DNA of 64,000 bases from Euryarchaeota archaeon UBA558 (GCA_002507175.1 DAZE01000005.1:20980-84979), one strand, 5' to 3'. Positions 9,966 through 50,810 are shown, counted from the stretch's first letter. Notes: generated by a model not told the origin, from the sequence alone. Translations and numbers: made by a program.

Positions 9966-11581
9966 GTTTCACCGGACCCCTCAGCATAATCACCCTCGTA
10001 CCACTCCTCTCCGGATTGATACTACTTGTCCTCCCGAATGTCCTCCCCAGTGATATCTCGATGAGGATGAAAGCTTCCGTCAGGAACGTAGCGATTGGCC
10101 TCTCATCGGCCATATTCCTTCTCACGACGTTAATTTTCGTCGGGACCATTGGACAGATAGATTGGCTGTCAATTGGCATGGGGGACTACGTCCTTGAGAC
10201 TGAGGACCCAGTCTGGCTGATCGAGTCGATCGGTGTCACCTGGCACCTCGGGACTGATGCGTTGTCCTTCCCGATGATTTGGCTCACCACGCTTCTGATT
10301 CCAATTTCCATGTTAGTTCAATGGGATGCCGAGGATGGTCACAGTTTCCATTCACTCCTGTTGATCATGGAGGGAGCCCTCATCGGAGTTTTCGTCTCTC
10401 TCGACCTCTTTGTTTTCTACATCTTCTGGGAACTCACGTTGGTCCCGATGTTTTTCCTGATTATGATCTGGGGTGGAGAGGACAGAAAATACGCATCGAT
10501 GAAGTTCTTCATCTACACATTCACGGCAAGCGTCTTGATGCTTGTAGGAATTCTAGTGATGTACTTCAACACAGTTGCAGATCCAAACTACGCAGGGACG
10601 CTAACTGGCCATCACTTCAACTTAGTATTGATGACCGAACAATCAAGGGTTGACGGACTGATAAACAGTGAGGGCCTCAGACACTTTGTCTGGCTCCTAC
10701 TGCTTATCGGCTTTGCGACAAAGATGCCCAGCGTACCAGTCCACACTTGGCTACCCGATGCTCACGTCCAAGCCCCTACCGCGGGCTCCATGCTTCTAGC
10801 CGGGGTCATGCTGAAGATGGGTGCATATGGGTTCCTGAGGATCGCAGTTGCTATGTTCCCAGAATCCACACTCACATTCGTTCCTCTCCTAGTCTTCCTA
10901 GGTATGGCGAGTCTGGTTTACGGAGCGGTAGTGTGTCTCGGGCAAACGAATCTAAAGAGGATGGTCGCGTATTCATCTGTTTCCCACATGGGCCTGATCT
11001 TCCTCGGGATTGCCACAATGCAGCCCCTCGGGTTTGCAGGCGCGCTGTTCATGATGTTCGCCCATGGTATCATCAGCCCTCTGCTGTTCGCTGTCGCTGG
11101 CTCGTTCAAACACCACTACCACACACTCGAGATCGGGTCAATGAGGGGGATTGCCCACCATTCCCCCTTCCTGGCAGGACACATGATGCTTGGTTGGATG
11201 GGTAGCCTCGGACTACCCTTGTTGGCGGGTTTCGTCGCTGAGGTAGCGATTATGATCGCCTTCTGGATGACGTTTGGTTGGTGGGTCCTCCTACCGGCAC
11301 TAACCCTGATCTTCACTGCCCTGTATTACCTTACTTCGATGCAGAAGATGATTTTTGAGTCCGATGATCCGCACATAGGAAAACTCCCAGACACCATGCA
11401 TGACGAAGAACCAAGGGACGTCACGTGGCATGAGAATGCCGGTATGTTTGTCCTCGGCGTTTTGACGATCCTATTCGGTATACTTCCGTTCATATTCTGG
11501 GACATGATGTCCGTTTGGAGCACTGAATTCATTCAGACTTACCTAGTACATGCAATGAACATGCTGGAGGCCTCTCCATGA
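9962..11581 (+). CDS. nuoM: NADH-quinone oxidoreductase subunit M
   Basis: The NuoM/antiporter core is present (WLPDAHVQAPTAGSMLLAGVMLKMGAYG). The probable start is TTG 9962, overlapping the nuoL stop in a TTGA arrangement. The first in-frame ATG lies far downstream and would delete TM1. Start choice is an inference. Confidence 0.8.
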   Translation: MSFTGPLSIITLVPLLSGLILLVLPNVLPSDISMRMKASVRNVAIGLSSAIFLLTTLIFVGTIGQIDWLSIGMGDYVLETEDPVWLIESIGVTWHLGTDALSFPMIWLTTLLIPISMLVQWDAEDGHSFHSLLLIMEGALIGVFVSLDLFVFYIFWELTLVPMFFLIMIWGGEDRKYASMKFFIYTFTASVLMLVGILVMYFNTVADPNYAGTLTGHHFNLVLMTEQSRVDGLINSEGLRHFVWLLLLIGFATKMPSVPVHTWLPDAHVQAPTAGSMLLAGVMLKMGAYGFLRIAVAMFPESTLTFVPLLVFLGMASLVYGAVVCLGQTNLKRMVAYSSVSHMGLIFLGIATMQPLGFAGALFMMFAHGIISPLLFAVAGSFKHHYHTLEIGSMRGIAHHSPFLAGHMMLGWMGSLGLPLLAGFVAEVAIMIAFWMTFGWWVLLPALTLIFTALYYLTSMQKMIFESDDPHIGKLPDTMHDEEPRDVTWHENAGMFVLGVLTILFGILPFIFWDMMSVWSTEFIQTYLVHAMNMLEASP

Positions 11582-34054: not shown

Positions 34055-37000
34055 TCAAGACCAATACCGCCTAGTCCTGGCATATTCGATTTCGGAATTG
34101 TGGATCGACCTCAGTAACCCAGTCCTAGAATCTGTCCGGAATCCTCTCAGTATCCTAGTAGCAGTCTCCTCCCCGATTCCTCTTCCCATCAGACAAAGGA
34201 TTGCTTCAAATCCATGGTTATTGAGCAATTCAGCATTCTTCTGCATCCTCGCCCTATCCTTGGGTTCTCTACTTTTCACCCATCCCAGCATCATTTCCTC
34301 CATCCTCTCTGGCCCGCAACATCTCATGCTCCCTCCACAAATTGGACAATCTCCAACACCCAGTTCAAGCCTATTCACCCGACTTCTTTGCACATTGTGG
34401 CAATTCAAGCAGACCAGAATACAGCGTTCTGACAACAATCTTGTTTCCAATCTCTCTCGCAACTCTTTATCCCCCCAAGCAGGGAGAAGCATGTCTCGTT
34501 CAGACCTCGGCGATTGTCCGAGCGGCCCTGGGGGAGTTATGATGATCTCGACGGAACCAAGTTGTAATTCCGACATGAGTTCCATGGCTCCCGTAATGTC
34601 CATTCTTTCATGGAATAACTTTGACAAAGTCTCCTCAACTACCGCCGTCCCTTGATAGCGCTTCAGCATCCCTGAAATGTTTACTTTTCTTGGGTCAACG
34701 TCCTTTCTCAGTATGCCGAATCTTCGAGCAACCTGCACAAATCTGGCTCTGATGGCCCTTCCGTTTGGTATGGTCATCCTCAATATTGCTTCCAAGGCAA
34801 GTGGCGAGGTTTCACGTAGCCACTTCTCTATGTCGGATGCTTTCACGCCGGGAATTCTGAATGATATCCTATAGGGGTCAACAACAGCGACCCCCATGCT
34901 CCCACCAAGGCCTGATCCCATAGCTTGGATGAAATGGGCTAGAGTCTCATTTATTCTTGATCCACGACAGCAGTTCAATATGATGGCATGTTCTCTGAGT
35001 TCAATCGTCAAAGTCTTGTCATCTGGGACATGGCCGGTGGAATCAAAGTGGTCAACTACGGTCTGGATATACAACGAGGCTGCTTCCTCAGAGAGTGGAT
35101 AGTCATCAAACGAGATTTCATCTTCACTCTCTCTGGTTGCGTTCACAAGGTCCAGAACCCTCCTTCGCATCTGTCCAACTTCAATGGCAACCTCAGAAGG
35201 GACTGGCGGCAACTCCCCTGACCAAACAGGAGCGCTCCCTACTTGAGAAACTGGTGCTACCACTAACTCATTCTGCTCAGGATCAGCATCCACAATCTGC
35301 CAAGTCCTTCCTGCCATTACGAATGTCCTGGGTCTGCCCTCAGCATCCTCGCTGCCATCTGAGTTCAAGGATAGTACGAATGACTCATCAACCGTTCCTA
35401 GGACTCGTCTGCTGACCAGATCACGAATCTTGAACAAAGACTCGTCTGGAATCATCGAATAATGGTCCCCCCTCGTAGACATTAGCTTGCCAGCGCCTTG
35501 AAACCAACCATCAGACAAAACCTCGGGTAGGCTCCTCACCATTTTCAACCTCATCTTTTCCAGTTCCGAGTCAGAATAATCGCCGGGGATTGGACGAGAA
35601 TCAGGGAAGTCAGCGTCATCAATGAGGCTAGAGAACTCATCCCAAAGCATCGTGCTCCAAGCAATGATGTCCGAGTTAGGGGGGTCATCTATTAGCCTAA
35701 GTAGCCAACGATCATCAAGCACCCTAAGAGTCGCCATGGTATCTTCGAATGACCAATCTCTGAACACTGATGCAGATGAAAGTATGCCATGGGCAGTCTG
35801 GAGAGGTACAACCTTTCTCTCCATTGCCATTTGAAGCAGTTGATTTGCCGCAACGATTGTCGGGTTGAGACGCCACTCGATGTTAGGTAATTCCTTGGCG
35901 AGAGCCTTTCTTGCAATCACAGCTGACTCGGCGATATCATCATGCTCCCATACGAGTATCTGACCTCGTCCAGTTCCCCCCAATTTGTGTTCGGACCTTC
36001 CGATCCGTTGGAGCAGGCTGTCTACACTTCTAGGAGATTGAATCTGATGCACCGCCTTGATTGATCCGACGTCTATTCCAAGCTCTAGACTAGATGTGCA
36101 GATCATGGCATCCAACTTACCATCTTTCAGTGCATTTTCCATTTGCTCTCTGGTTTCAGCCGCAAGACTTCCATGATGTACCCCGATTCTTACCTCTGGG
36201 GAGATCTGAACCATGCGCTGAGCTACTGTCTCGGCATTTGACCTCGAATTCACGAAGACCAAGGCTGGAGAAGATGTGTTGATGAGACTCGTTAGCCTCC
36301 TCAGTGAGGATATGGCTCTAGGGGAGACATTCCAAGCTACTGACAGCGCTTCATCCTCGGGAGTTGCGGGCTCCACGTGAACTGAAACCTCGGTTGACCT
36401 TGGTGATGGACCTTCCACCACCACTGCGTCTTTCGAAAACCATCTTGCAACCTCATTTGCGTTTCCTACCGTAGCTGATAGCCCTACAACCTGGACTTCT
36501 CTTCCAGCAAGTGCGCGTATTCTTTGGATCCCCACTAACAATTGTGAGCCACGCTCTGAACTTGCGAGGTCATGAACTTCGTCAATGACGATCGTTCGAA
36601 CCTTCGCTAGGTGTTTTCTCAACCTAGAACCTAAAAGCATGATCTGGAGGGTTTCAGGCGTGGTAATCAGAATGTCAGGCGGGGTCTTCGATTGTCTTGC
36701 CCGCTCTTTTTTTGTAGTATCTCCGTGACGTAGTGATACCGTGAGGCCAAGGGGTTCCAGAAATGGTCCAAGCCTCTTATCCATGTCCCTGTTCAGGGCC
36801 CTGAGAGGTGTGACATATAGGACGGAAAGTGCCCGCCAGTCCCCTGAAAGTACGTTTGAGGCTATTGGGATTATTGCAGCCTCGGTCTTCCCGCTTCCAG
36901 TCGGCGCGACCAACAAGGCATCCTTTCCCAAAAGCAGGGGTTTCAACGACGCCTCCTGAATAGGGGTGGGAGTCCAACTTAGATTGTCTAGTAGTAGAGA

Positions 37001-37093
37001 TACCTCAGGGACCAGCCCCTCGTTAGGTCGCACGGACCATGGGGAGACTAGGGCATGCAAAAAGACATGTTCCACAGGACCAACCACCCGCAA
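34055..37093 (-). CDS. lhr: Lhr-type large ATP-dependent helicase (superfamily 2, DEAD/DEAH box) with a C-terminal Cys4 zinc ribbon
   Basis: Motif I reads LLVAPTGSGKTEAA and motif II reads VIDEVHDL, with RecA2 motifs LSAT and QRIGRSEH. At 1012 aa it has the long Lhr-core-like C-terminal region, including CLNCHNVQRSRVNRLELGVGDCPICGG. Confidence 0.85.
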   Translation of the reverse strand: MRVVGPVEHVFLHALVSPWSVRPNEGLVPEVSLLLDNLSWTPTPIQEASLKPLLLGKDALLVAPTGSGKTEAAIIPIASNVLSGDWRALSVLYVTPLRALNRDMDKRLGPFLEPLGLTVSLRHGDTTKKERARQSKTPPDILITTPETLQIMLLGSRLRKHLAKVRTIVIDEVHDLASSERGSQLLVGIQRIRALAGREVQVVGLSATVGNANEVARWFSKDAVVVEGPSPRSTEVSVHVEPATPEDEALSVAWNVSPRAISSLRRLTSLINTSSPALVFVNSRSNAETVAQRMVQISPEVRIGVHHGSLAAETREQMENALKDGKLDAMICTSSLELGIDVGSIKAVHQIQSPRSVDSLLQRIGRSEHKLGGTGRGQILVWEHDDIAESAVIARKALAKELPNIEWRLNPTIVAANQLLQMAMERKVVPLQTAHGILSSASVFRDWSFEDTMATLRVLDDRWLLRLIDDPPNSDIIAWSTMLWDEFSSLIDDADFPDSRPIPGDYSDSELEKMRLKMVRSLPEVLSDGWFQGAGKLMSTRGDHYSMIPDESLFKIRDLVSRRVLGTVDESFVLSLNSDGSEDAEGRPRTFVMAGRTWQIVDADPEQNELVVAPVSQVGSAPVWSGELPPVPSEVAIEVGQMRRRVLDLVNATRESEDEISFDDYPLSEEAASLYIQTVVDHFDSTGHVPDDKTLTIELREHAIILNCCRGSRINETLAHFIQAMGSGLGGSMGVAVVDPYRISFRIPGVKASDIEKWLRETSPLALEAILRMTIPNGRAIRARFVQVARRFGILRKDVDPRKVNISGMLKRYQGTAVVEETLSKLFHERMDITGAMELMSELQLGSVEIIITPPGPLGQSPRSERDMLLPAWGDKELRERLETRLLSERCILVCLNCHNVQRSRVNRLELGVGDCPICGGSMRCCGPERMEEMMLGWVKSREPKDRARMQKNAELLNNHGFEAILCLMGRGIGEETATRILRGFRTDSRTGLLRSIHNSEIEYARTRRYWS

Positions 37094-37877: not shown

Positions 37878-38730
37878 GATGAAATCAACCATGCTCAGAG
37901 AGGTGGCAATCTCTATCGGGATGGTGATAGCTATCCTTTCTGGCCTGTGGGCTTACACTGGCTCATGGCCCCCGCTTGTAGTTGTCGAGAGCAACTCCAT
38001 GATCCACTCAGAACAAGGACAGGTTGGATCGATAGATGCTGGAGATTTGGTATTAGTAAAATCCCCTGGAAGGACCGATCAAATCGTCACGTATGTGGAA
38101 TCAATGCAAGAAGGCAATCAGTACTCTGGCCACCAGAGTCATGGCATGCCAGGTGACGTCATAATCTACCAAAAGAACGGCGGTACCGATACCCCTGTGA
38201 TACACAGGGCAATTCTCAAAGCAGTGAGGAATGAAACTGGCGGTTGGGATGTCCCTGGAACTGATATCAGGGCAGTTGAGGAGATCTCCTTGATCATCGA
38301 CTATCCTTGTTATCCGCACGGTGGCAGCTTGAGGATTGACAGGTGGGTTCCCGCCCACGAGGGTTACCTTACAACCGGAGACAATGAAAAATCAAATGGT
38401 TGCAGGTTGGACCAATTAAGGGCCACTGATAGAAATGCATCGGATCAATATATTCGAAGTCAGGGCCTTAAGGATCAGGACGGGAACCCTGTCTTGGCAG
38501 TGAAAGATGAGTGGGTAATAGGCGTCGCATCCACGGAGATTCCTTGGCTCGGATCGATAAAACTGCTTACAACTGGTGCATGGCCAGCTGTTCCCAACCA
38601 ATCATGGACTAAACTCAGCATGGTGATCGGGGTAATCCTAGTAGCGCCCGTGATCGTTGATGCTATCCGAGGAAGATCAAAAGAATCTGGGAAGCAGTAT
38701 GGGGACAAGCACCAGGGCGAGGACGAATAG
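37870..38730 (+). CDS. Signal peptidase I (S26/Sec11-type, archaeal)
   Basis: An N-terminal TM is followed by the catalytic Ser box (VVVESNSMIH) and GDLVLVKSP (SPase box B-like). There is a C-terminal TM. Confidence 0.65.
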   Translation: MIEMKSTMLREVAISIGMVIAILSGLWAYTGSWPPLVVVESNSMIHSEQGQVGSIDAGDLVLVKSPGRTDQIVTYVESMQEGNQYSGHQSHGMPGDVIIYQKNGGTDTPVIHRAILKAVRNETGGWDVPGTDIRAVEEISLIIDYPCYPHGGSLRIDRWVPAHEGYLTTGDNEKSNGCRLDQLRATDRNASDQYIRSQGLKDQDGNPVLAVKDEWVIGVASTEIPWLGSIKLLTTGAWPAVPNQSWTKLSMVIGVILVAPVIVDAIRGRSKESGKQYGDKHQGEDE

Positions 38731-40245
38731 CGAACTATAACCGCTTATCTGATCTGCTATCCTCTCGATTTTCAGGGGGTTTGACTTGGGCAATACGGTC
38801 TTGGCAATGATGTGTCCAGCATTCCGGACCATGTGCCCCCCATCAAACGGTATCAACGGAATTAGGTTAGCCACCCCCAGAAGAAAACTAATCCACATTA
38901 TCCAGAACAAAAAATCAAACAGGCCCAAGATGACGTCTATTCCTAGCAGGGATGGAAGGATGCCGGTACCTGCCCCTAGGAAGGCCCTCTCTTCTAACAC
39001 CATCGTCTGACCCTGATTTTGGATTGGCACACCACTAAAGAGGAGGGGCGAAATTGCCGTTTGGACGAAGCGCTCACCAAAACTCAAATCCTCTGATATT
39101 GGAAGGCCATAGGCTCTAGCAGCAGAGTCTGCAGATCTTATGCCACTGACACCGAGAAACGCATCCCCTTCCTCTATCCCAGCTGCATCCACGTTGGATT
39201 CACATTGAGGATCTCCATCACACAATTGATAGTAGTATCTTTTCTTGTCAGTCAGTGTCACATCAACCTCTCTAAATACGACGTCGCCATGTATGGGATT
39301 CGAACTGACGAGCATGGTAACCAAATCCCCCGAATCGTGTTGGTTTAGGATTCCAGTTAGGTCGTCACCAGTCGCGATGGCAACTCCATCAATCTCAGAA
39401 ATCAACTCATACGGAAGAAGGCCGGCTTCATCCGCCCCTGAACCCTCAATTATCCCAACTGCGTACACGCCTTCTTGTTTCGCAGTTAATCCAGAGGAAA
39501 CCACTGCTAGAAGTATGACGACAAAATAAGTCATGACAATATTGACAGACGGCCCTGCCGCAAACATCCTCAACCGATCCCGTTGTGGAGCAATCCTCAT
39601 CTCTTCTTGGTCTGGCTCATAAAATGCCCCGACTGGAATGATCCCTGCCATCAGTATCCCAAAAGATCGAATCCTCATCCCATGAGCTCGTGCCATTAGG
39701 CCATGTCCATACTCGTGAACCACAACAGCTACGATCAGTGCAAGAATAGGCCAGAAAATTGGTACAAAGCTAGTCACCCCTGGGATGAACAAAATATCCG
39801 TCGCAGGTAGAACTTCTTGCTGGGCCGGCTCGATGGCTGTGCTTATTGCGCTTGCAGCTATTCCAAAAATTAAGAAGAGCATGACAGCAAAGCAAAGCCA
39901 AATTGAGGCCTCCCCAAAAATCCTCCAAAAACGTCTGGGACGTGCTATGAAATCGGCTGTTTTTTTTCCCTTGTTAGTCCTAATCATCAATATGATGCCT
40001 AGGATTCTCGTACAATTCCACCTTTCTAGATATCCGTTTCTATCTAGGAACAGAATTGAAATGTACCATAAAATAAGGAAGGCCCCAAGCGGAAGACTGA
40101 GCAAACCATTCACAGTCAGGAGCACAAGTCCTGCGATCATTAGGATCTGATTCAAGCCCAATGAGCCGTCATCCATAGTACGACCGATATGGCGGCCTGC
40201 TTCAAATGTCACTATTCCGAGAACACTAAGACCACCCCCCACCAC
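38677..40245 (-). CDS. Site-2 protease (M50 family zinc metalloprotease) with PDZ domain
   Basis: HEYGHGLMARAHG (HExxH in a TM helix) and the downstream LDGG-type motif (IPLIPFDGGHMV) are present. An internal PDZ-like region reads GIIEGSGADEAGL. It is 522 aa. Its 3' end overlaps the convergent signal peptidase gene by about 54 nt. Confidence 0.85.
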   Translation of the reverse strand: MVGGGLSVLGIVTFEAGRHIGRTMDDGSLGLNQILMIAGLVLLTVNGLLSLPLGAFLILWYISILFLDRNGYLERWNCTRILGIILMIRTNKGKKTADFIARPRRFWRIFGEASIWLCFAVMLFLIFGIAASAISTAIEPAQQEVLPATDILFIPGVTSFVPIFWPILALIVAVVVHEYGHGLMARAHGMRIRSFGILMAGIIPVGAFYEPDQEEMRIAPQRDRLRMFAAGPSVNIVMTYFVVILLAVVSSGLTAKQEGVYAVGIIEGSGADEAGLLPYELISEIDGVAIATGDDLTGILNQHDSGDLVTMLVSSNPIHGDVVFREVDVTLTDKKRYYYQLCDGDPQCESNVDAAGIEEGDAFLGVSGIRSADSAARAYGLPISEDLSFGERFVQTAISPLLFSGVPIQNQGQTMVLEERAFLGAGTGILPSLLGIDVILGLFDFLFWIMWISFLLGVANLIPLIPFDGGHMVRNAGHIIAKTVLPKSNPLKIERIADQISGYSSLFVLALVLVPILLPRFF

Positions 40246-45899: not shown

Positions 45900-46748
45900 T
45901 CACCCCAATATGAATCTCGGGTCGCTGATTAGGCCCTCAGCGACTGCCATCACAAACAAGTCGCCAAGGAAAACCATGGCTAGAGACGTCCAAAACCATA
46001 GATTGTGATGAACGTTATGACGACTAGAGAACCTGAAAATCCTCCCGGCGATTGATGAAGCCCCTCCCCTCCATTGTTTCAGGGAGCCCCCCACGAGGTG
46101 TCTAAATGCATGACATGAAATGACATACATCGTAAGCAAGAAAGATTCGATCGCAAGGACAAAGGTCCCGACAGAAAGCCCCCAAGATCCGCTGAATTGC
46201 ATTGTGTGGACGACGTCATAGTACTTCATCGACAGTATAATGATGGCAAGATACAGCATGTACCGATGAAGATTGTTGAAAATGAAAATGCCCCTCTCGC
46301 CGGAGTAGCCGAGAGTATGGTTGATGTCGGGTTTAGAGACCATACACGCTGAGGGGTTTTGGAAGAAGGATCGGTGGTACACCTTCCGCATGTAGTAGCA
46401 AGTACCTCTGAAACCGAAGGGAATCCATAGGATCAGCATTGCTGAGTTCATCCATCCTGGGTGGTTGGTCACATGAAAAATGTGGAGCACGTCAGGTGAG
46501 AAGATTGGGGAGGTCACCCGATGGTCCTCGTAGTGTATGCTACCATCCAAGACCGCTACACGGATGAGTGTGTAAAGTAAGGCAAAACCGAGGGCGGCAG
46601 CCATGATCAATGGTTGATTCCACCAATCGTCAATCCTCTGAGTTTTTCCGAAACCCTTCACCAATGGTAGACGCTGGTAGCCCCTCATAGCCTCCACCCC
46701 GAACCGCTCAATCGTGGGCACCGCATAAGGCTGACCTTTTTCCGACAC
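45900..46748 (-). CDS. Probable succinate dehydrogenase membrane anchor / cytochrome b subunit (5-TM, His-rich)
   Basis: It lies 4 nt upstream of sdhA on the same strand. The product is 282 aa with about 5 TM helices and multiple conserved-looking His residues in helices, which are possible heme ligands. Assignment rests on operon position and topology. Confidence 0.5.
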   Translation of the reverse strand: MSEKGQPYAVPTIERFGVEAMRGYQRLPLVKGFGKTQRIDDWWNQPLIMAAALGFALLYTLIRVAVLDGSIHYEDHRVTSPIFSPDVLHIFHVTNHPGWMNSAMLILWIPFGFRGTCYYMRKVYHRSFFQNPSACMVSKPDINHTLGYSGERGIFIFNNLHRYMLYLAIIILSMKYYDVVHTMQFSGSWGLSVGTFVLAIESFLLTMYVISCHAFRHLVGGSLKQWRGGASSIAGRIFRFSSRHNVHHNLWFWTSLAMVFLGDLFVMAVAEGLISDPRFILG

Positions 46749-46902: not shown

Positions 46903-47460
46903 TCACCATGGGTACTTCCAAACCCAAAGTATGCCATCATTCACAATTACCTGAACACCGAGCATCAATCCGCCGATGAAGGGAAGGATGCCTGTCCCTT
47001 CAACTCCACTTTGCCATGCTACCCAACCCATCATGATCAGCAGGACATTTCCACAAACTACCAGCCACAAGTTCCCGATCACGAGCCATTGAGTCAGGGC
47101 GGTGTTAGTTTCTATGTGGATCCTAGTTAACTCGAGCCAAAGCATCGACGGAATTAGAATGAGCAGCATCGCAATGAGTAGCCTTGCATGCCCCCCTGTG
47201 TCGACTTTTCCACTCCATGGCCACCCGATTCCTTCCACAACTGAATATTCCCAAGAGAACAAAAGATGCCACCATGCGATCAAAAAGCCTGCGGCAGCTA
47301 CGAACATGCAGGTCACGTTCAATGGCCTCCAAGATTCTGGGATGCCACCCCAGAGAGACATAGGATCCTCCATCCTTCGCAATCCAATCACGTATGATGC
47401 CAGTACCATTGGTCCAAGTATGAAAACAACCGTGCGGACTAACTCTCTTGAGACTTCCAT
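46903..47460 (-). CDS. Hypothetical membrane protein (185 aa, ~5 TM, Trp-rich)
   Basis: Hydrophobic helices are present throughout. There is no recognisable motif. Confidence 0.4.
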   Translation of the reverse strand: MEVSRELVRTVVFILGPMVLASYVIGLRRMEDPMSLWGGIPESWRPLNVTCMFVAAAGFLIAWWHLLFSWEYSVVEGIGWPWSGKVDTGGHARLLIAMLLILIPSMLWLELTRIHIETNTALTQWLVIGNLWLVVCGNVLLIMMGWVAWQSGVEGTGILPFIGGLMLGVQVIVNDGILWVWKYPW

Positions 47461-47589: not shown

Positions 47590-47664
47590 AGGCGCACGTG
47601 ATCTAGCGGTTATGATACGAGGTTCCCAACCTCGTTACCCGGGTTCAAGTCCCGGCGTGCGCAC
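47590..47664 (+). tRNA. tRNA-Gly (anticodon CCC), CCA encoded
   Basis: The 7-bp acceptor stem GCGCACG/CGTGCGC and the anticodon arm CGAGG-TTCCCAA-CCTCG (anticodon CCC) are present. The T arm is CCGGG-TTCAAGT-CCCGG with TTCAAGT matching the T-loop consensus. The discriminator is A and the 3' end is CCA (47662-47664). The D stem has one mismatch. Confidence 0.85.
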
Positions 47665-47675
47665 CAACTCGTCAC

Positions 47676-50600
47676 TCAATTATCCTGTTTGGATCTGATT
47701 CCTATTGCTGCGGTTAGCAATGCGATCATAGCCATGTAGAGTCCAAAACCGGGCAAAAGGCCACCATCCTCAGGCTTATCCACACATCCCGTTTGAGATG
47801 TCAACGGTTGATGCTGACCGGCTGGACAGGGGGTCTGTTCCACTGATCCCGACTCAGACGAGAAGAAGTTAGTGGAGGTGAATGTGCAAGAGCTTTGGCC
47901 TTCTAGTGATTGATAGGTGCCTGGCGGGCATGGGATCTGTTCTGTGGCAGCGAGGTTGTCCACGAAATTTCCTCGATCCGCGAGCAAACACTCGGAGGAG
48001 CCGATGTTTGGTTGATAGGTCCCCTTTTCACAGGCTGTCTGGCTTAGCTGTGAATTGGAATCGACAAAGTGGCCACTATCTGCCTGAATACAAGATGTCG
48101 AGGCTGAGATAGGTTGGAAAGTCCCCACTCCGCATGCTATGAACTCAGTTGCAGAACTGTCAGGTACATAATGTCCAGCTGGGGAATCACGACAACTCGT
48201 GGACTTCGCCATTGATTGATACGTACCGGGCTCACAAGGGATTTGGTTTACAGACCCTATCTCATTTGTGTAGTGGCCTGGTTCGACGTCTTCACAGTTA
48301 GTCTGTCCGCTCAAGGGTTGGTAGGTCGTCAGAGGGCATGGGATCTGGTTTTGTGAACCCTCACCAACTACATAGTGACCGGCGTCCCCCAAAAAGCACT
48401 CAATTGATCCTGGATTTGGCTGGAATGTTCCTGATGCACAGATCACATAGTCAATCGAGCCCTCGTTTGGTACGTAGGAGCCAGGGATTGCAGAGAGGCA
48501 TGTTTCAGCACCACTATTTGGTTGGTATGAGCCAGGACTGCATGCAATGGCTTCGGTGGATCCAACACCGGATGTGTAGTACCCGGGTTGTGTGACCTCG
48601 CAATCTATCGAACCCTCGAGGGGTTGGTACCTTCCTGACAAGCAGGGTTGGAAGGACGTGGATCCTGCAGTTGATACGTAGTATCCAGCAGGAGCAAGAA
48701 TGCAACTCGTGCCAGCTGAGTTTGGTTGATAGGAACCTGGTTGACAGGTTTCGGGATGGGTCGATGCATCGACCGAAGTGTACTGTCCAGGAGATGTCGA
48801 TGAGCACGAAATAGAGCCCTCAATGGAGCTATATTGTCCCGGTGGACAGGGGGTCTGTTCCGTGGCTGAAGTACTGTCAACATAGTATCCAGGGCTTGCC
48901 CTTAAGCAAGCGGTTGCTCCATGTGTTGGAGAGTATCTACCGACTGTGCATGGAGATTGGAAGGTCTTCCCTGGGGTCTCCACCATGTGACCAAGATCAG
49001 CAAGGATGCAAGTCGAGGCTCCTGAGTTGGGTTGGTAGGAGCCAGCGGGACATATGGTCTGCGATAATGCGCCCTCATCAGGAACATGGTAGCCTGGATT
49101 TGAGTCTATGCAGGACGCTTGCCCCCCGTCGGGTTGGTAGGTCCCACTCTCACAGATGACGAGGATCCCTGGTTGACCCCCTTCCGCATAGTGACCTGGC
49201 GGGGATTCTTCGCAGGAGTTAGGACCATCTTGATACCATCCGGTGGGACAGCCTACGGGCCACAGGTCGAATGGGGAATCAAGCCCGTCATTATCCGAAT
49301 CGAGGTCACCCAGCAAAATCTTCGCCGTTCCTGGAGGATGCATGATTTCCGGGACCCGAGTCCCCCACCAGGTCTGATGGGAGGTCTGGTTAACATTGTT
49401 CCATGCATATGCGCCCCAGCAGTGGATCTCGTTTGAGGAATCCAAGCCACAAGCGTTCGCAGCACCCATCACTACTGCAATATAATTTCCACCCGTGTAG
49501 ACCTGATGGGGCGCCGAGCGATCCTCACAATCTATGTTGTATCCGCCGCCAGACCCTCCCATGTAGTTGCATATCACTGAGTTCGAACCATTGTAGTCTC
49601 CAGTGTTGCCGCCCCAATTGTCACCCCAGCAATAGGCCCCGGTTTGGTCGTACATCGCACACGCTTGTGCGGTTGTGGCGGATATGCTCGTCATGCTCTC
49701 TCCTGATGGGCCTTGGATCAGAGTTGGAACCACGGCATAGGGTTGGTTGCTATTGTTGCCTATCCCTTGTTGGCTCTCAGTGTTGGCACCCCAGCAAACA
49801 CCCTCTCCTGAACCGGTCATCGCGCACGAAAACACCCATCCATTGGCAGCCTGAACGAAAGATAGGTTCGCCACATCTTGGATCGTGATTTCGGTGTTTG
49901 ACATTTCCAGCTTTCTGGGACTGCTTGTAATCCACCAGTAGCCGCAACCAGGGGCTTCGGTTATAGGATCAGGATCAACAATATCCCCGCCAGTGACCCT
50001 GCAATTCATGTCAGATCCCCAGCAATACATCCCACCATCGGTGCCCGTAGCACATGTGTGTTCGCCTCCCACGCTTACGGAGGTCACCGAGACCCCCCCT
50101 GGCATGGCGATCAATTCAGGAGTCCTTATGCCAGATGCGCTGTCGTCGCATGGGTTCACGTATGTAACAATCGATCCATCCCAATCAAAGCAGATCTGCC
50201 CGTTCCCAACCTGCCCCCTGTCGTTGTTCCCCCAACAATAGAGGTCCCCATCGGTGCTGATCACGCAGGAATGAGAACTCGGCCCCTGTGAAAGTGATTT
50301 AGCAACGACTCCCTGGGGCAAGAGGACCAGTGACGGGACAAGTTGGTTGCCCCCTATCTGCCCGTTACCGATCTGCCCACGCTCGTTGCTGCCCCAGCAG
50401 TAGACGGCTCCTTGTGACGTCAGGCCGCATGCGTGGTCTAGGTGTGCTGAGACCTCTACAATGCCCATTCCGTCAAGTGCATCCACGTAGGTCATGTTGT
50501 GGTAGACCATTTCGCCTTCGACTCCAATTCCAGTTTGACCGAAGTCTGTCCTTCCCCAGCATAGCACGCTGGAGTTCTCAGTGATAGCGCAGGCGAACTG

Positions 50601-50810
50601 CCTCCCGATCGAAAGCGTATCAAGGGTGTCGATATGGCCCAGTACTTGGCCTGGTGAATTGCTGGAAATGGACCTCAGACTAATCTCATCCGAAGGAAAC
50701 TCGATTTCTGTTTGTGATCCTGATTCAACCAACAGAGAATGTGTTGAAAATAATACCATCATTGTTGCAAGAAGTATGCCTGTCCACGGACCCTTCGCCA
50801 TGAGGGGCAT
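47676..50810 (-). CDS. Large secreted cell-surface protein: signal peptide, RCC1-like beta-propeller repeats, ~14 tandem Cys-rich repeats, PGF-CTERM anchor
   Basis: The N-terminal signal/TM reads MPLMAKGPWTGILLATMMVLFS. Repeated CWG(x)N(x)(R/G)GQ(I/V)GNG blades (CWGSNERGQIGNG, YCWGNNDRGQVGNG, VCWGANTESQQGIG) indicate RCC1/BLIP-II-type repeats. These are followed by about 14 tandem ~33-aa units of consensus C.PG.YQPNSG...C..A..G.Y(V)…, which are ephrin-receptor-like / GCC2_GCC3-like Cys repeats. The C-terminus …LPGFGLYMAMIALLTAAIGIRSKQDN is a PGF-CTERM archaeosortase sorting signal (PGF, then TM, then basic residues). Confidence 0.8.
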   Translation of the reverse strand: MPLMAKGPWTGILLATMMVLFSTHSLLVESGSQTEIEFPSDEISLRSISSNSPGQVLGHIDTLDTLSIGRQFACAITENSSVLCWGRTDFGQTGIGVEGEMVYHNMTYVDALDGMGIVEVSAHLDHACGLTSQGAVYCWGSNERGQIGNGQIGGNQLVPSLVLLPQGVVAKSLSQGPSSHSCVISTDGDLYCWGNNDRGQVGNGQICFDWDGSIVTYVNPCDDSASGIRTPELIAMPGGVSVTSVSVGGEHTCATGTDGGMYCWGSDMNCRVTGGDIVDPDPITEAPGCGYWWITSSPRKLEMSNTEITIQDVANLSFVQAANGWVFSCAMTGSGEGVCWGANTESQQGIGNNSNQPYAVVPTLIQGPSGESMTSISATTAQACAMYDQTGAYCWGDNWGGNTGDYNGSNSVICNYMGGSGGGYNIDCEDRSAPHQVYTGGNYIAVVMGAANACGLDSSNEIHCWGAYAWNNVNQTSHQTWWGTRVPEIMHPPGTAKILLGDLDSDNDGLDSPFDLWPVGCPTGWYQDGPNSCEESPPGHYAEGGQPGILVICESGTYQPDGGQASCIDSNPGYHVPDEGALSQTICPAGSYQPNSGASTCILADLGHMVETPGKTFQSPCTVGRYSPTHGATACLRASPGYYVDSTSATEQTPCPPGQYSSIEGSISCSSTSPGQYTSVDASTHPETCQPGSYQPNSAGTSCILAPAGYYVSTAGSTSFQPCLSGRYQPLEGSIDCEVTQPGYYTSGVGSTEAIACSPGSYQPNSGAETCLSAIPGSYVPNEGSIDYVICASGTFQPNPGSIECFLGDAGHYVVGEGSQNQIPCPLTTYQPLSGQTNCEDVEPGHYTNEIGSVNQIPCEPGTYQSMAKSTSCRDSPAGHYVPDSSATEFIACGVGTFQPISASTSCIQADSGHFVDSNSQLSQTACEKGTYQPNIGSSECLLADRGNFVDNLAATEQIPCPPGTYQSLEGQSSCTFTSTNFFSSESGSVEQTPCPAGQHQPLTSQTGCVDKPEDGGLLPGFGLYMAMIALLTAAIGIRSKQDN

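Follow-up and report, generated by a model that had tools for sequence, protein, structure and literature searches.

An RCC1-like propeller on a cysteine-rich stalk of fixed length: a candidate surface receptor or adhesin of a Marine Group II archaeon

RCC1-like domain (RLD) propellers, such as those of RCC1, HERC2, UVR8 and RPGR, serve as protein-binding platforms, and a secreted bacterial representative of this seven-bladed fold is BLIP-II. Regarding cysteine-rich hairpin repeats, a long array has been solved in the 'Sushi' tandem of MST1 from the Chlamydomonas mastigoneme (Protein Data Bank (PDB) codes 8wa2 and 9b4h), and another in Elapor1 (9vqm). As described by its authors, the MST1 tandem is highly similar to the ephrin-receptor cysteine-rich domain, its disulfides form a ladder with a spacing of ~11 Å that confers robustness, and the tandem supplies the main subunit-subunit interfaces of the mastigoneme filament (PMC10602792). 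Both kinds of element are combined in a protein of 1044 amino acids encoded on the minus strand, at positions 47676..50810, of a 64,000-nucleotide stretch of Euryarchaeota archaeon UBA558 (GCA_002507175.1, DAZE01000005.1:20980-84979), the whole of which is called the window below. An earlier reading of the DNA alone, here the original prediction, had described the protein as an exported archaeal surface protein with both types of repeat.

We read this protein, with moderate confidence, as a cell-surface, C-terminally anchored, stalked-propeller receptor or adhesin of a Marine Group II (MGII) archaeon. It would be exported through an N-terminal Sec-type signal and held at the cytoplasmic membrane by a C-terminal hydrophobic segment, which would act as a plain type-I transmembrane anchor or be swapped for a lipid when the protein is processed. 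On the outer side, a rod about 30 nm long, rigid and constant in length, would be built of 15 two-cysteine double-hairpin units stapled by disulfides; its far end, behind a conserved acidic DxDxDG hinge, would bear a probably N-glycosylated seven-bladed propeller. The propeller would be the working part: held at a defined height above the membrane, inside the envelope or past it, its binding face would contact particles, other cells or macromolecular substrates. Ligand binding and an adhesion or receptor role are most likely by analogy, since RCC1-like propellers are binding platforms, making a receptor or adhesin the most economical role.

The gene is a single open reading frame (ORF) with exactly the limits originally predicted, having an ATG start and its stop codon at 47676-47678 (-). 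An in-frame ATG is also present at codon 4 (50801, -), giving 1041 amino acids and the start 'MAKG...' chosen in many database entries; translation possibly begins at either codon 1 or codon 4 (50801-50810, -). A strong TATA box is not obvious in the 61-nt spacer between the stop codon of the aldehyde dehydrogenase gene and the ORF. At the N-terminus, residues 1 to ~30 (50721..50810, -) form a Sec-type signal peptide or signal anchor, with one Lys followed by a hydrophobic stretch at 10-28 and a helix at 12-22 in the AlphaFold2 model. The N-terminus has no twin-Arg, lipobox Cys or class-III KG/hydrophobic motif, and class-III (pilin-type), Tat and lipobox signals were rejected from this sequence, the KG motif being also missing in one orthologue. 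The N-terminal hydrophobic stretch, the hydrophobic anchor at the other end and the Poseidoniales host are in agreement with the predicted export of an archaeal surface protein.

The seven-bladed RCC1-like β-propeller occupies residues ~61-495 (49326..50630, -), as seen by Pfam, by sequence matches in the PDB and by Foldseek. Three Pfam models of RCC1 type exceed their cutoffs: PF25390 (WD40_RLD; 158 vs 150 bits), PF13540 (RCC1_2; 129 vs 22 bits, in six stretches) and PF00415 (RCC1; 69.9 vs 21.7 bits). The blades are marked by seven 'CWG' motifs, with the Cys at 84, 138, 192, 263, 339, 394 and 464. In sequence, the propeller matches HERC2, UVR8 and RCC1 of the PDB (E 9e-31 to 1e-20), and its model was matched by Foldseek against the PDB to UVR8 (TMt, the template modelling score reported, 0.87), the HERC2 RLDs (0.83), RCC1 (0.74) and also RPGR. 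The propeller read from the DNA is thus borne out by profiles, blade number and structural comparison. All 50 Cys of the protein are paired, in seven blade pairs (C-x9-CWG), three extra pairs within loop insertions of the propeller (207/221, 270/289 and 414/428) and the 30 Cys of the stalk, those of the blades being invariant in an alignment of 10 family members down to 32% identity. The search for N-glycosylation sequons, advised in the original prediction, gave six N-x-S/T sites, all in the propeller half, the stalk having none or one; four of the six (N79, N105, N315 and N474) are kept in orthologues down to 53% identity. This conservation, confined to the propeller half, suggests a glycosylated head.

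RCC1-like propellers with 22-39% identity to the head alone are also encoded by 47 IMG/VR viral contigs, several of which are giant-virus metagenome-assembled genomes (MAGs). A viral link was rejected, because the viral contigs match the generic RCC1 propeller only (query residues ~45-520) and none carries the Cys-repeat stalk.

Between propeller and stalk lies the acidic loop LDSDNDGLDSPFD (residues 502-515; 49266..49307, -), in which D504, D506, D508, G509 and D515 are invariant. A D-x-D-x-D-G-x4-F-D motif is found at the same head/stalk junction in distant homologues, e.g., 'DRDIDGDGILNIFD'. The loop is possibly a calcium site, resembling DxDxDG, thrombospondin-type-3 or EF-like loops; since the Pfam model TSP_3 has no match on it, calcium binding is proposed from the motif itself. 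The loop may also relate to the 'thrombospondin genes' of MGII (PMC6461757). In the full-length AlphaFold2 model, made with 10 sequences, the mean predicted local distance difference test (pLDDT) score is 69.6, reaching 80-90 in the stalk and being low at residues 1-64, in the hinge (501-521) and in the C-terminal tail.

The stalk (residues 521-1009; 47784..49250, -) comprises 15 Ephrin_rec_like double-hairpin units, as defined by Pfam, Cys spacing, AlphaFold2 and Foldseek. PF07699 (Ephrin_rec_like; formerly GCC2_GCC3) scores 128.7 bits against a cutoff of 23.1, in 11 tandem stretches; missing profile matches had been named beforehand as a ground for abandoning the prediction, and both RCC1 and Ephrin_rec_like stand well above the Pfam cutoffs. 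The 30 Cys form 15 pairs, the first unit having 32 aa and the other fourteen recurring every 34 aa exactly (553, 587, ... 995), with the final unit ending early, right after its second Cys. The repeat type had therefore been correctly recognized, with the count moving from about 14 to 15 units, the last one shortened, and the consensus computed here, CppGTYQPnsGstsC..a.pGhYV...GSTeQiP, is the same as that first proposed.

The units, originally described as highly regular, are so in length but not in sequence: their mean identity is 34% in amino acids (maximum 53%) and 43% in nucleotides, without nearest-neighbour excess, and Tandem Repeats Finder detected zero tandem repeats in the stalk DNA, even at a score of 30. 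Meanwhile, all 30 stalk Cys are invariant among the same 10 family members. In every orthologue (53-98% identity) the stalk measures exactly 489 aa between its outermost Cys, with alternating gaps of 14 and 20 residues and zero indels, so that a fixed spacer length is under selection. The relatives at 30-33% identity have 16 units, not 15. Inside 90%-identity clusters, comprising hundreds of sequences, length variants of 3, 14, 15 or 22-23 aa are seen and a 34-aa step never, these variants reflecting start-codon calls. By these comparisons the repeats are old and fixed in number, with the stalk length under strong constraint. The recent repeat expansion that had been suggested is contradicted by the strong divergence of the units and their invariant Cys, as is length variation between strains by the array without indels.

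Modelled alone (residues 516-1016), the stalk reaches a pLDDT of 90.8 and shows two short β-hairpins per 34-aa unit. Its best Foldseek match is the Cys-rich tandem of MST1 (E 2e-26, TMq up to 0.66 across 501 residues), followed by Elapor1 (E 5e-6) and, weakly, by the cysteine-rich domains of TNF receptors and the EphA4 ectodomain (E 0.05-0.2). The sequence identity with MST1 is 18-20%, and the sole match of a phmmer search of the stalk against the PDB was a cyanovirin, attributed to chance (E 0.08). The paired Cys probably form disulfides, and by analogy the stalk would be a rigid, possibly curved rod with a contour length of roughly 30 nm (30 hairpins of ~1.1 nm each), a value taken from the rung spacing of the MST1 disulfide ladder.

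A search with the stalk only gave 594 proteins at E <= 1e-5, the named ones being bacterial or archaeal (Gemmatimonadaceae, Terriglobales, Thermomicrobiales, Xanthomonadales, Marinicellulosiphila and Thermoplasmatota), and the first eukaryote being Branchiostoma (E 1.7e-34). The prokaryotic arrays are fused to varied secreted heads, such as endonuclease I, NF038122 metalloprotease, CAP, cytochrome b5, PxKF and RCC1, and all the prokaryotic relatives examined share the 14/20 Cys spacing, with 2 Cys per 34 aa. In contrast, eukaryote-type proteins, from Branchiostoma and others, have a 3/14 spacing, that is, CxxC every 17 aa and 4 Cys per 34 aa, a pattern that the 1044-aa protein does not show. 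Since 3 + 14 + 3 = 20, taking every second Cys pair out of the eukaryotic form yields the prokaryotic one, which would carry half of the ladder's rungs. The eukaryote-like flavour first attributed to this combination cannot be maintained, the closest relatives of the array being bacterial and archaeal with the 14/20 spacing; it comes from the Pfam names, and the joining of propeller and stalk is a 'head on a spacer' design of a kind ordinary in prokaryotes. Since this stalk type is joined to many secreted heads in bacteria, it can be considered a generic extracellular spacer module. The recognition of two-Cys 'ephrin-receptor-like' rods as a common spacer outside bacterial and archaeal cells is of use for annotation.

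Regarding the host, orthologues were scanned in one genome per species, and full-length ones occur in four 'Euryarchaeota archaeon UBA' MAGs: UBA552 (81% identity), UBA182 (79%), UBA52 and UBA171 (68% each). A 33% relative was found in one Poseidoniales MAG, and one cluster member is labelled Thalassarchaeaceae. The UBA orthologues and this label identify the host as a Marine Group II (Poseidoniales) archaeon, Thalassarchaeaceae-like, with MGIIb as the probable subgroup. The gene is single-copy in each of the four close species, where the order of genes is strict: orf556, CDC48, Aldedh, the 1044-aa gene, tRNA-Gly(CCC), mem185, mem282, SdhA and SdhB. The 33% relative may be a paralogue, because its locus, the single more distant Poseidoniales locus examined, is not syntenic. 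The complete plan of RCC1 propeller, DxDxDG loop, Cys array and transmembrane (TM) segment is present in many Thermoplasmatota and Poseidoniales proteins.

The ratio of nonsynonymous to synonymous substitutions (dN/dS) of the gene, compared with UBA552, UBA52 and UBA171, is 0.12-0.19, against 0.01-0.06 for the syntenic CDC48, Aldedh, SdhB and mem282, where dS is unsaturated. The gene thus evolves 3-10 times faster than the syntenic housekeeping genes, and its product is 68-81% identical in amino acids compared to 85-99% for most neighbours. These ratios indicate that the gene is functional and under purifying selection, with no sign of gene-wide positive selection against the three MAGs, and its relatively fast evolution is typical of exposed surface proteins.

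The integrity of the ORF was considered, as misassembly inside the repeats, giving a chimeric protein, had been raised as a danger. The only support for a chimera within the protein itself is its internal repeats, to which may be added a scaffold gap in the UBA182 MAG, where 404 consecutive N, at ~10480-10885 of the UBA182 locus, interrupt the sequence coding for the orthologue's propeller and look like an insertion in tblastn coordinates; the 320-nt 'insertion' in this orthologue was rejected, as it equals the run of N. On the other side, the identical 1044-aa product is found on at least 20 marine contigs of independent assemblies (TARA, other ENA studies and an NCBI metagenome), all with the same neighbours (CDC48, aldehyde dehydrogenase, the 1044-aa gene, two small membrane ORFs, SdhA, SdhB and MC1), and the orthologues are full-length and syntenic in genomes of four species. 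In addition, DNA identity between the units is too low to mislead an assembler, so that, with the null result of Tandem Repeats Finder, collapse or shuffling of units is not expected. Misassembly was excluded on these grounds, and the probability left to a chimera is negligible. The C-terminus offers a more serious alternative. The anchor (residues 1010-1044; 47679..47783, -) consists of the acidic linker VDKPEDGG, LLPGF, a hydrophobic helix (~1021-1038) and RSKQDN, the protein ending in ...VDKPEDGGLLPGFGLYMAMIALLTAAIGIRSKQDN, with PGF at 47745-47753 (-), hydrophobic residues at 1018-1038 and the basic tail. It is through this C-terminal helix that the protein is anchored in the membrane; the original prediction took the same elements as a PGF-CTERM signal, in which case archaeosortase ArtA would remove the TM helix and an archaeal lipid would be covalently attached, a processing that we regard as doubtful. 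The tripartite arrangement does stand at the extreme C-terminus, with PGF, about 17 hydrophobic residues and a basic tail of six, TIGR04126 is the sole NCBIfam model matching the protein, and Sec-exported surface proteins of Euryarchaeota are among the ArtA substrates (PMC6098224). The 48 full-length orthologues compared all have 'GGLLP', a hydrophobic stretch and a basic tail of six residues, and most of them, down to 53% identity, retain 'GGLLPGF', while helix residues vary. However, both profiles remain below their curated cutoffs on this tail (PF18204, 12.2 vs 18.8 bits; TIGR04126, 13.5 vs 24.5 bits), only three of 10 family members match with a best E of 0.0033, and the motif reads PAL in 12 and PGL in one of the 48, all within one sister lineage. 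The PAL variant is hard to square with a strict ArtA signature, because permuting PGF to PFG abolished processing in Haloferax (PMC6098224). The relatives at 30-33% identity also tell against the signal, as they lack PGF and have at their C-termini an ordinary TM helix with ~20-40 cytoplasmic residues behind it. Other PGF-type tails were absent from the 64-kb window and from five related 23-kb loci, a sample too small to decide, and a protein search with the tail only gave zero candidates sharing this C-terminus. No exosortase/archaeosortase domain (PF09721) was found by Pfam among 20 window ORFs, the whole genome not having been searched for ArtA, and no literature linking archaeosortase, exosortase or PGF-CTERM to MGII/Poseidoniales was found. 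ArtA processing is then possible, weakened by the profile scores and the PAL lineage; detection of the C-terminal peptide LLPGFGLYMAMIALLTAAIGIR in protein from wild populations would speak against cleavage. As this alternative touches the anchoring mode alone, it is compatible with the main architecture.

Other alternatives concern the role of the whole protein. It might be a major S-layer protein, with propellers tiling a canopy and Cys-rich rods as pillars setting the width of the pseudo-periplasm, which we consider unlikely. For such a role speak its large size, acidic (100 D+E vs 25 K+R) and Ser/Thr/Gly-rich composition, export, C-terminal anchor and conserved sequons, as well as a strictly fixed stalk that would fit a pillar, a gene present once, and in the same gene order, in each of the four species examined, and the fact that no MGII S-layer protein is reported in the literature searched. 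However, no S-layer family of Pfam or NCBIfam matches the protein, and the 33% Poseidoniales relative, perhaps a paralogue, lies at a non-syntenic locus. Characterised euryarchaeal S-layer proteins are built of Ig-like or β-sandwich domains, not of propellers on rods, and the present architecture is closer to what one would expect of a receptor or adhesin on a stalk than of a protein that builds a lattice. Another reading, in our view improbable, is that the stalks wrap in mastigoneme style into dimeric or higher-order fibres, as surface hairs with several propeller heads. It draws on the superposition of the 501-aa stalk model on the MST1 tandem (TMq 0.66) and on the use of this tandem as the main subunit interface of its filament (PMC10602792); against it, the likeness is limited to fold and curvature at 18-20% identity, the 4-Cys repeats, Ig domains and polyproline helix of MST1 are all missing, and bacterial enzymes carry the same stalk, for which a simple spacer role is likelier. 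More speculatively, and with a low probability, the 15-unit indel-free rod could be a molecular ruler and perhaps an assembly module, with stalks intertwined into disulfide-laddered fibres or pillars defining the MGII envelope and the propellers as its outermost contact layer or canopy. If true, this would make it the first identified envelope-building protein of an archaeal group that is among the most abundant in the ocean, and the prokaryotic equivalent of a hair protein of eukaryotic cilia. The stalked receptor or adhesin remains preferred over these, although two observations weigh against it too: the propeller reaches a pLDDT of only ~60-80 in the full-length model, a moderate confidence, and the MGII transcriptome study of Damashek et al., in its text and eight supplementary files (PMC9723583), does not mention RCC1, COG5184 or S-layer. 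The gene is not named there among the top-5% Thalassarchaeaceae transcripts, and this lack of mention among the highly transcribed genes counts against an S-layer role as well.

In the neighbourhood, a tRNA-Gly(CCC) gene (47592-47666, +) is convergent with the 3' end of the 1044-aa gene, 10 nt past the stop codon. A genomic island or horizontal gene transfer through this adjacent tRNA was rejected, given the strict synteny of gene and tRNA in four species and an unremarkable GC content; the pairing, kept in 4/4 syntenic species, is thus not an integration scar. Two conserved hydrophobic ORFs without Pfam match, mem185 (185 aa; 46903-47460, -) and mem282 (282 aa; 45900-46748, -), sit between the 1044-aa gene and sdhA/sdhB in every syntenic genome, and may be unusual succinate dehydrogenase membrane subunits. 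At a distance of 8-17 kb, a presenilin-type signal-peptide peptidase (PF06550; 30657-31736, -) is encoded, as is a PDZ-containing M50 site-2 protease (38677-40245, -); these intramembrane proteases could cut signal or anchor helices, with no link to the 1044-aa gene. The other ORF of ~1000 aa in the window (34055-37093, -) was rejected as a second surface protein, being a cytoplasmic Lhr-type DEAD/DEAH helicase (PF00270, PF08494).

MGII archaea are uncultured, and with regard to their cell envelope and attachment to particles or phytoplankton the published MGII genomic surveys name just flagella, thrombospondin-like and flotillin genes. Being conserved, syntenic and under purifying selection, yet comparatively fast-evolving and surface-exposed, the gene is a tangible candidate for a role in attachment or recognition, or as a phage receptor, in a Thalassarchaeaceae-like lineage. 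Assembled from known parts, the protein belongs to a class of modular surface proteins that is widespread in prokaryotes; it is itself uncharacterised and reveals no new mechanism. What makes it interesting is mainly the part its host plays in ocean ecology, together with a stalk of strikingly invariant length.

Comparing the protein with known systems, it shares with the RLDs of RCC1, HERC2, UVR8 and RPGR the seven blades, the C...CWG..N..GQ.G signature and Pfam scores above cutoff. In contrast to them, at a sequence identity of ~20%, its propeller is extracellular, on a membrane-anchored stalk, with Cys pairs of disulfide type in three loop insertions and conserved N-glycosylation sequons, and it lacks the Ran guanine nucleotide exchange or UV-sensing context of RCC1 and UVR8. 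With ArtA-processed proteins of Haloferax type it has in common Sec export, the C-terminal P-G-F, the hydrophobic helix and the short basic tail, differing in the missed profile cutoffs, the PAL/PGL of the sister lineage and the absence of a Thr-rich O-glycosylated linker. The likeness to MST1 and Elapor1 lies in stacked 17-aa β-hairpin modules, disulfide-stapled into an elongated, curved rod; however, compared to the 4-Cys eukaryotic type of MST1, the present stalk has 2 Cys per 34 aa in 14/20 spacing, is not accompanied by Ig domains or a polyproline helix, and has a membrane anchor in place of filament assembly. The same array is found in prokaryotic proteins, none of them characterised, from Gemmatimonadaceae, Terriglobales (NF038122 metalloprotease), Thermomicrobiales (PxKF), Marinicellulosiphila (CAP protein) and other Thermoplasmatota (RCC1 proteins). 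With these the 1044-aa protein shares 31-45% identity over the array, across 8-12 or more units; they differ from it in their head domains (nuclease, protease, CAP, cytochrome b5), in how many units they have and in how they end at the C-terminus.

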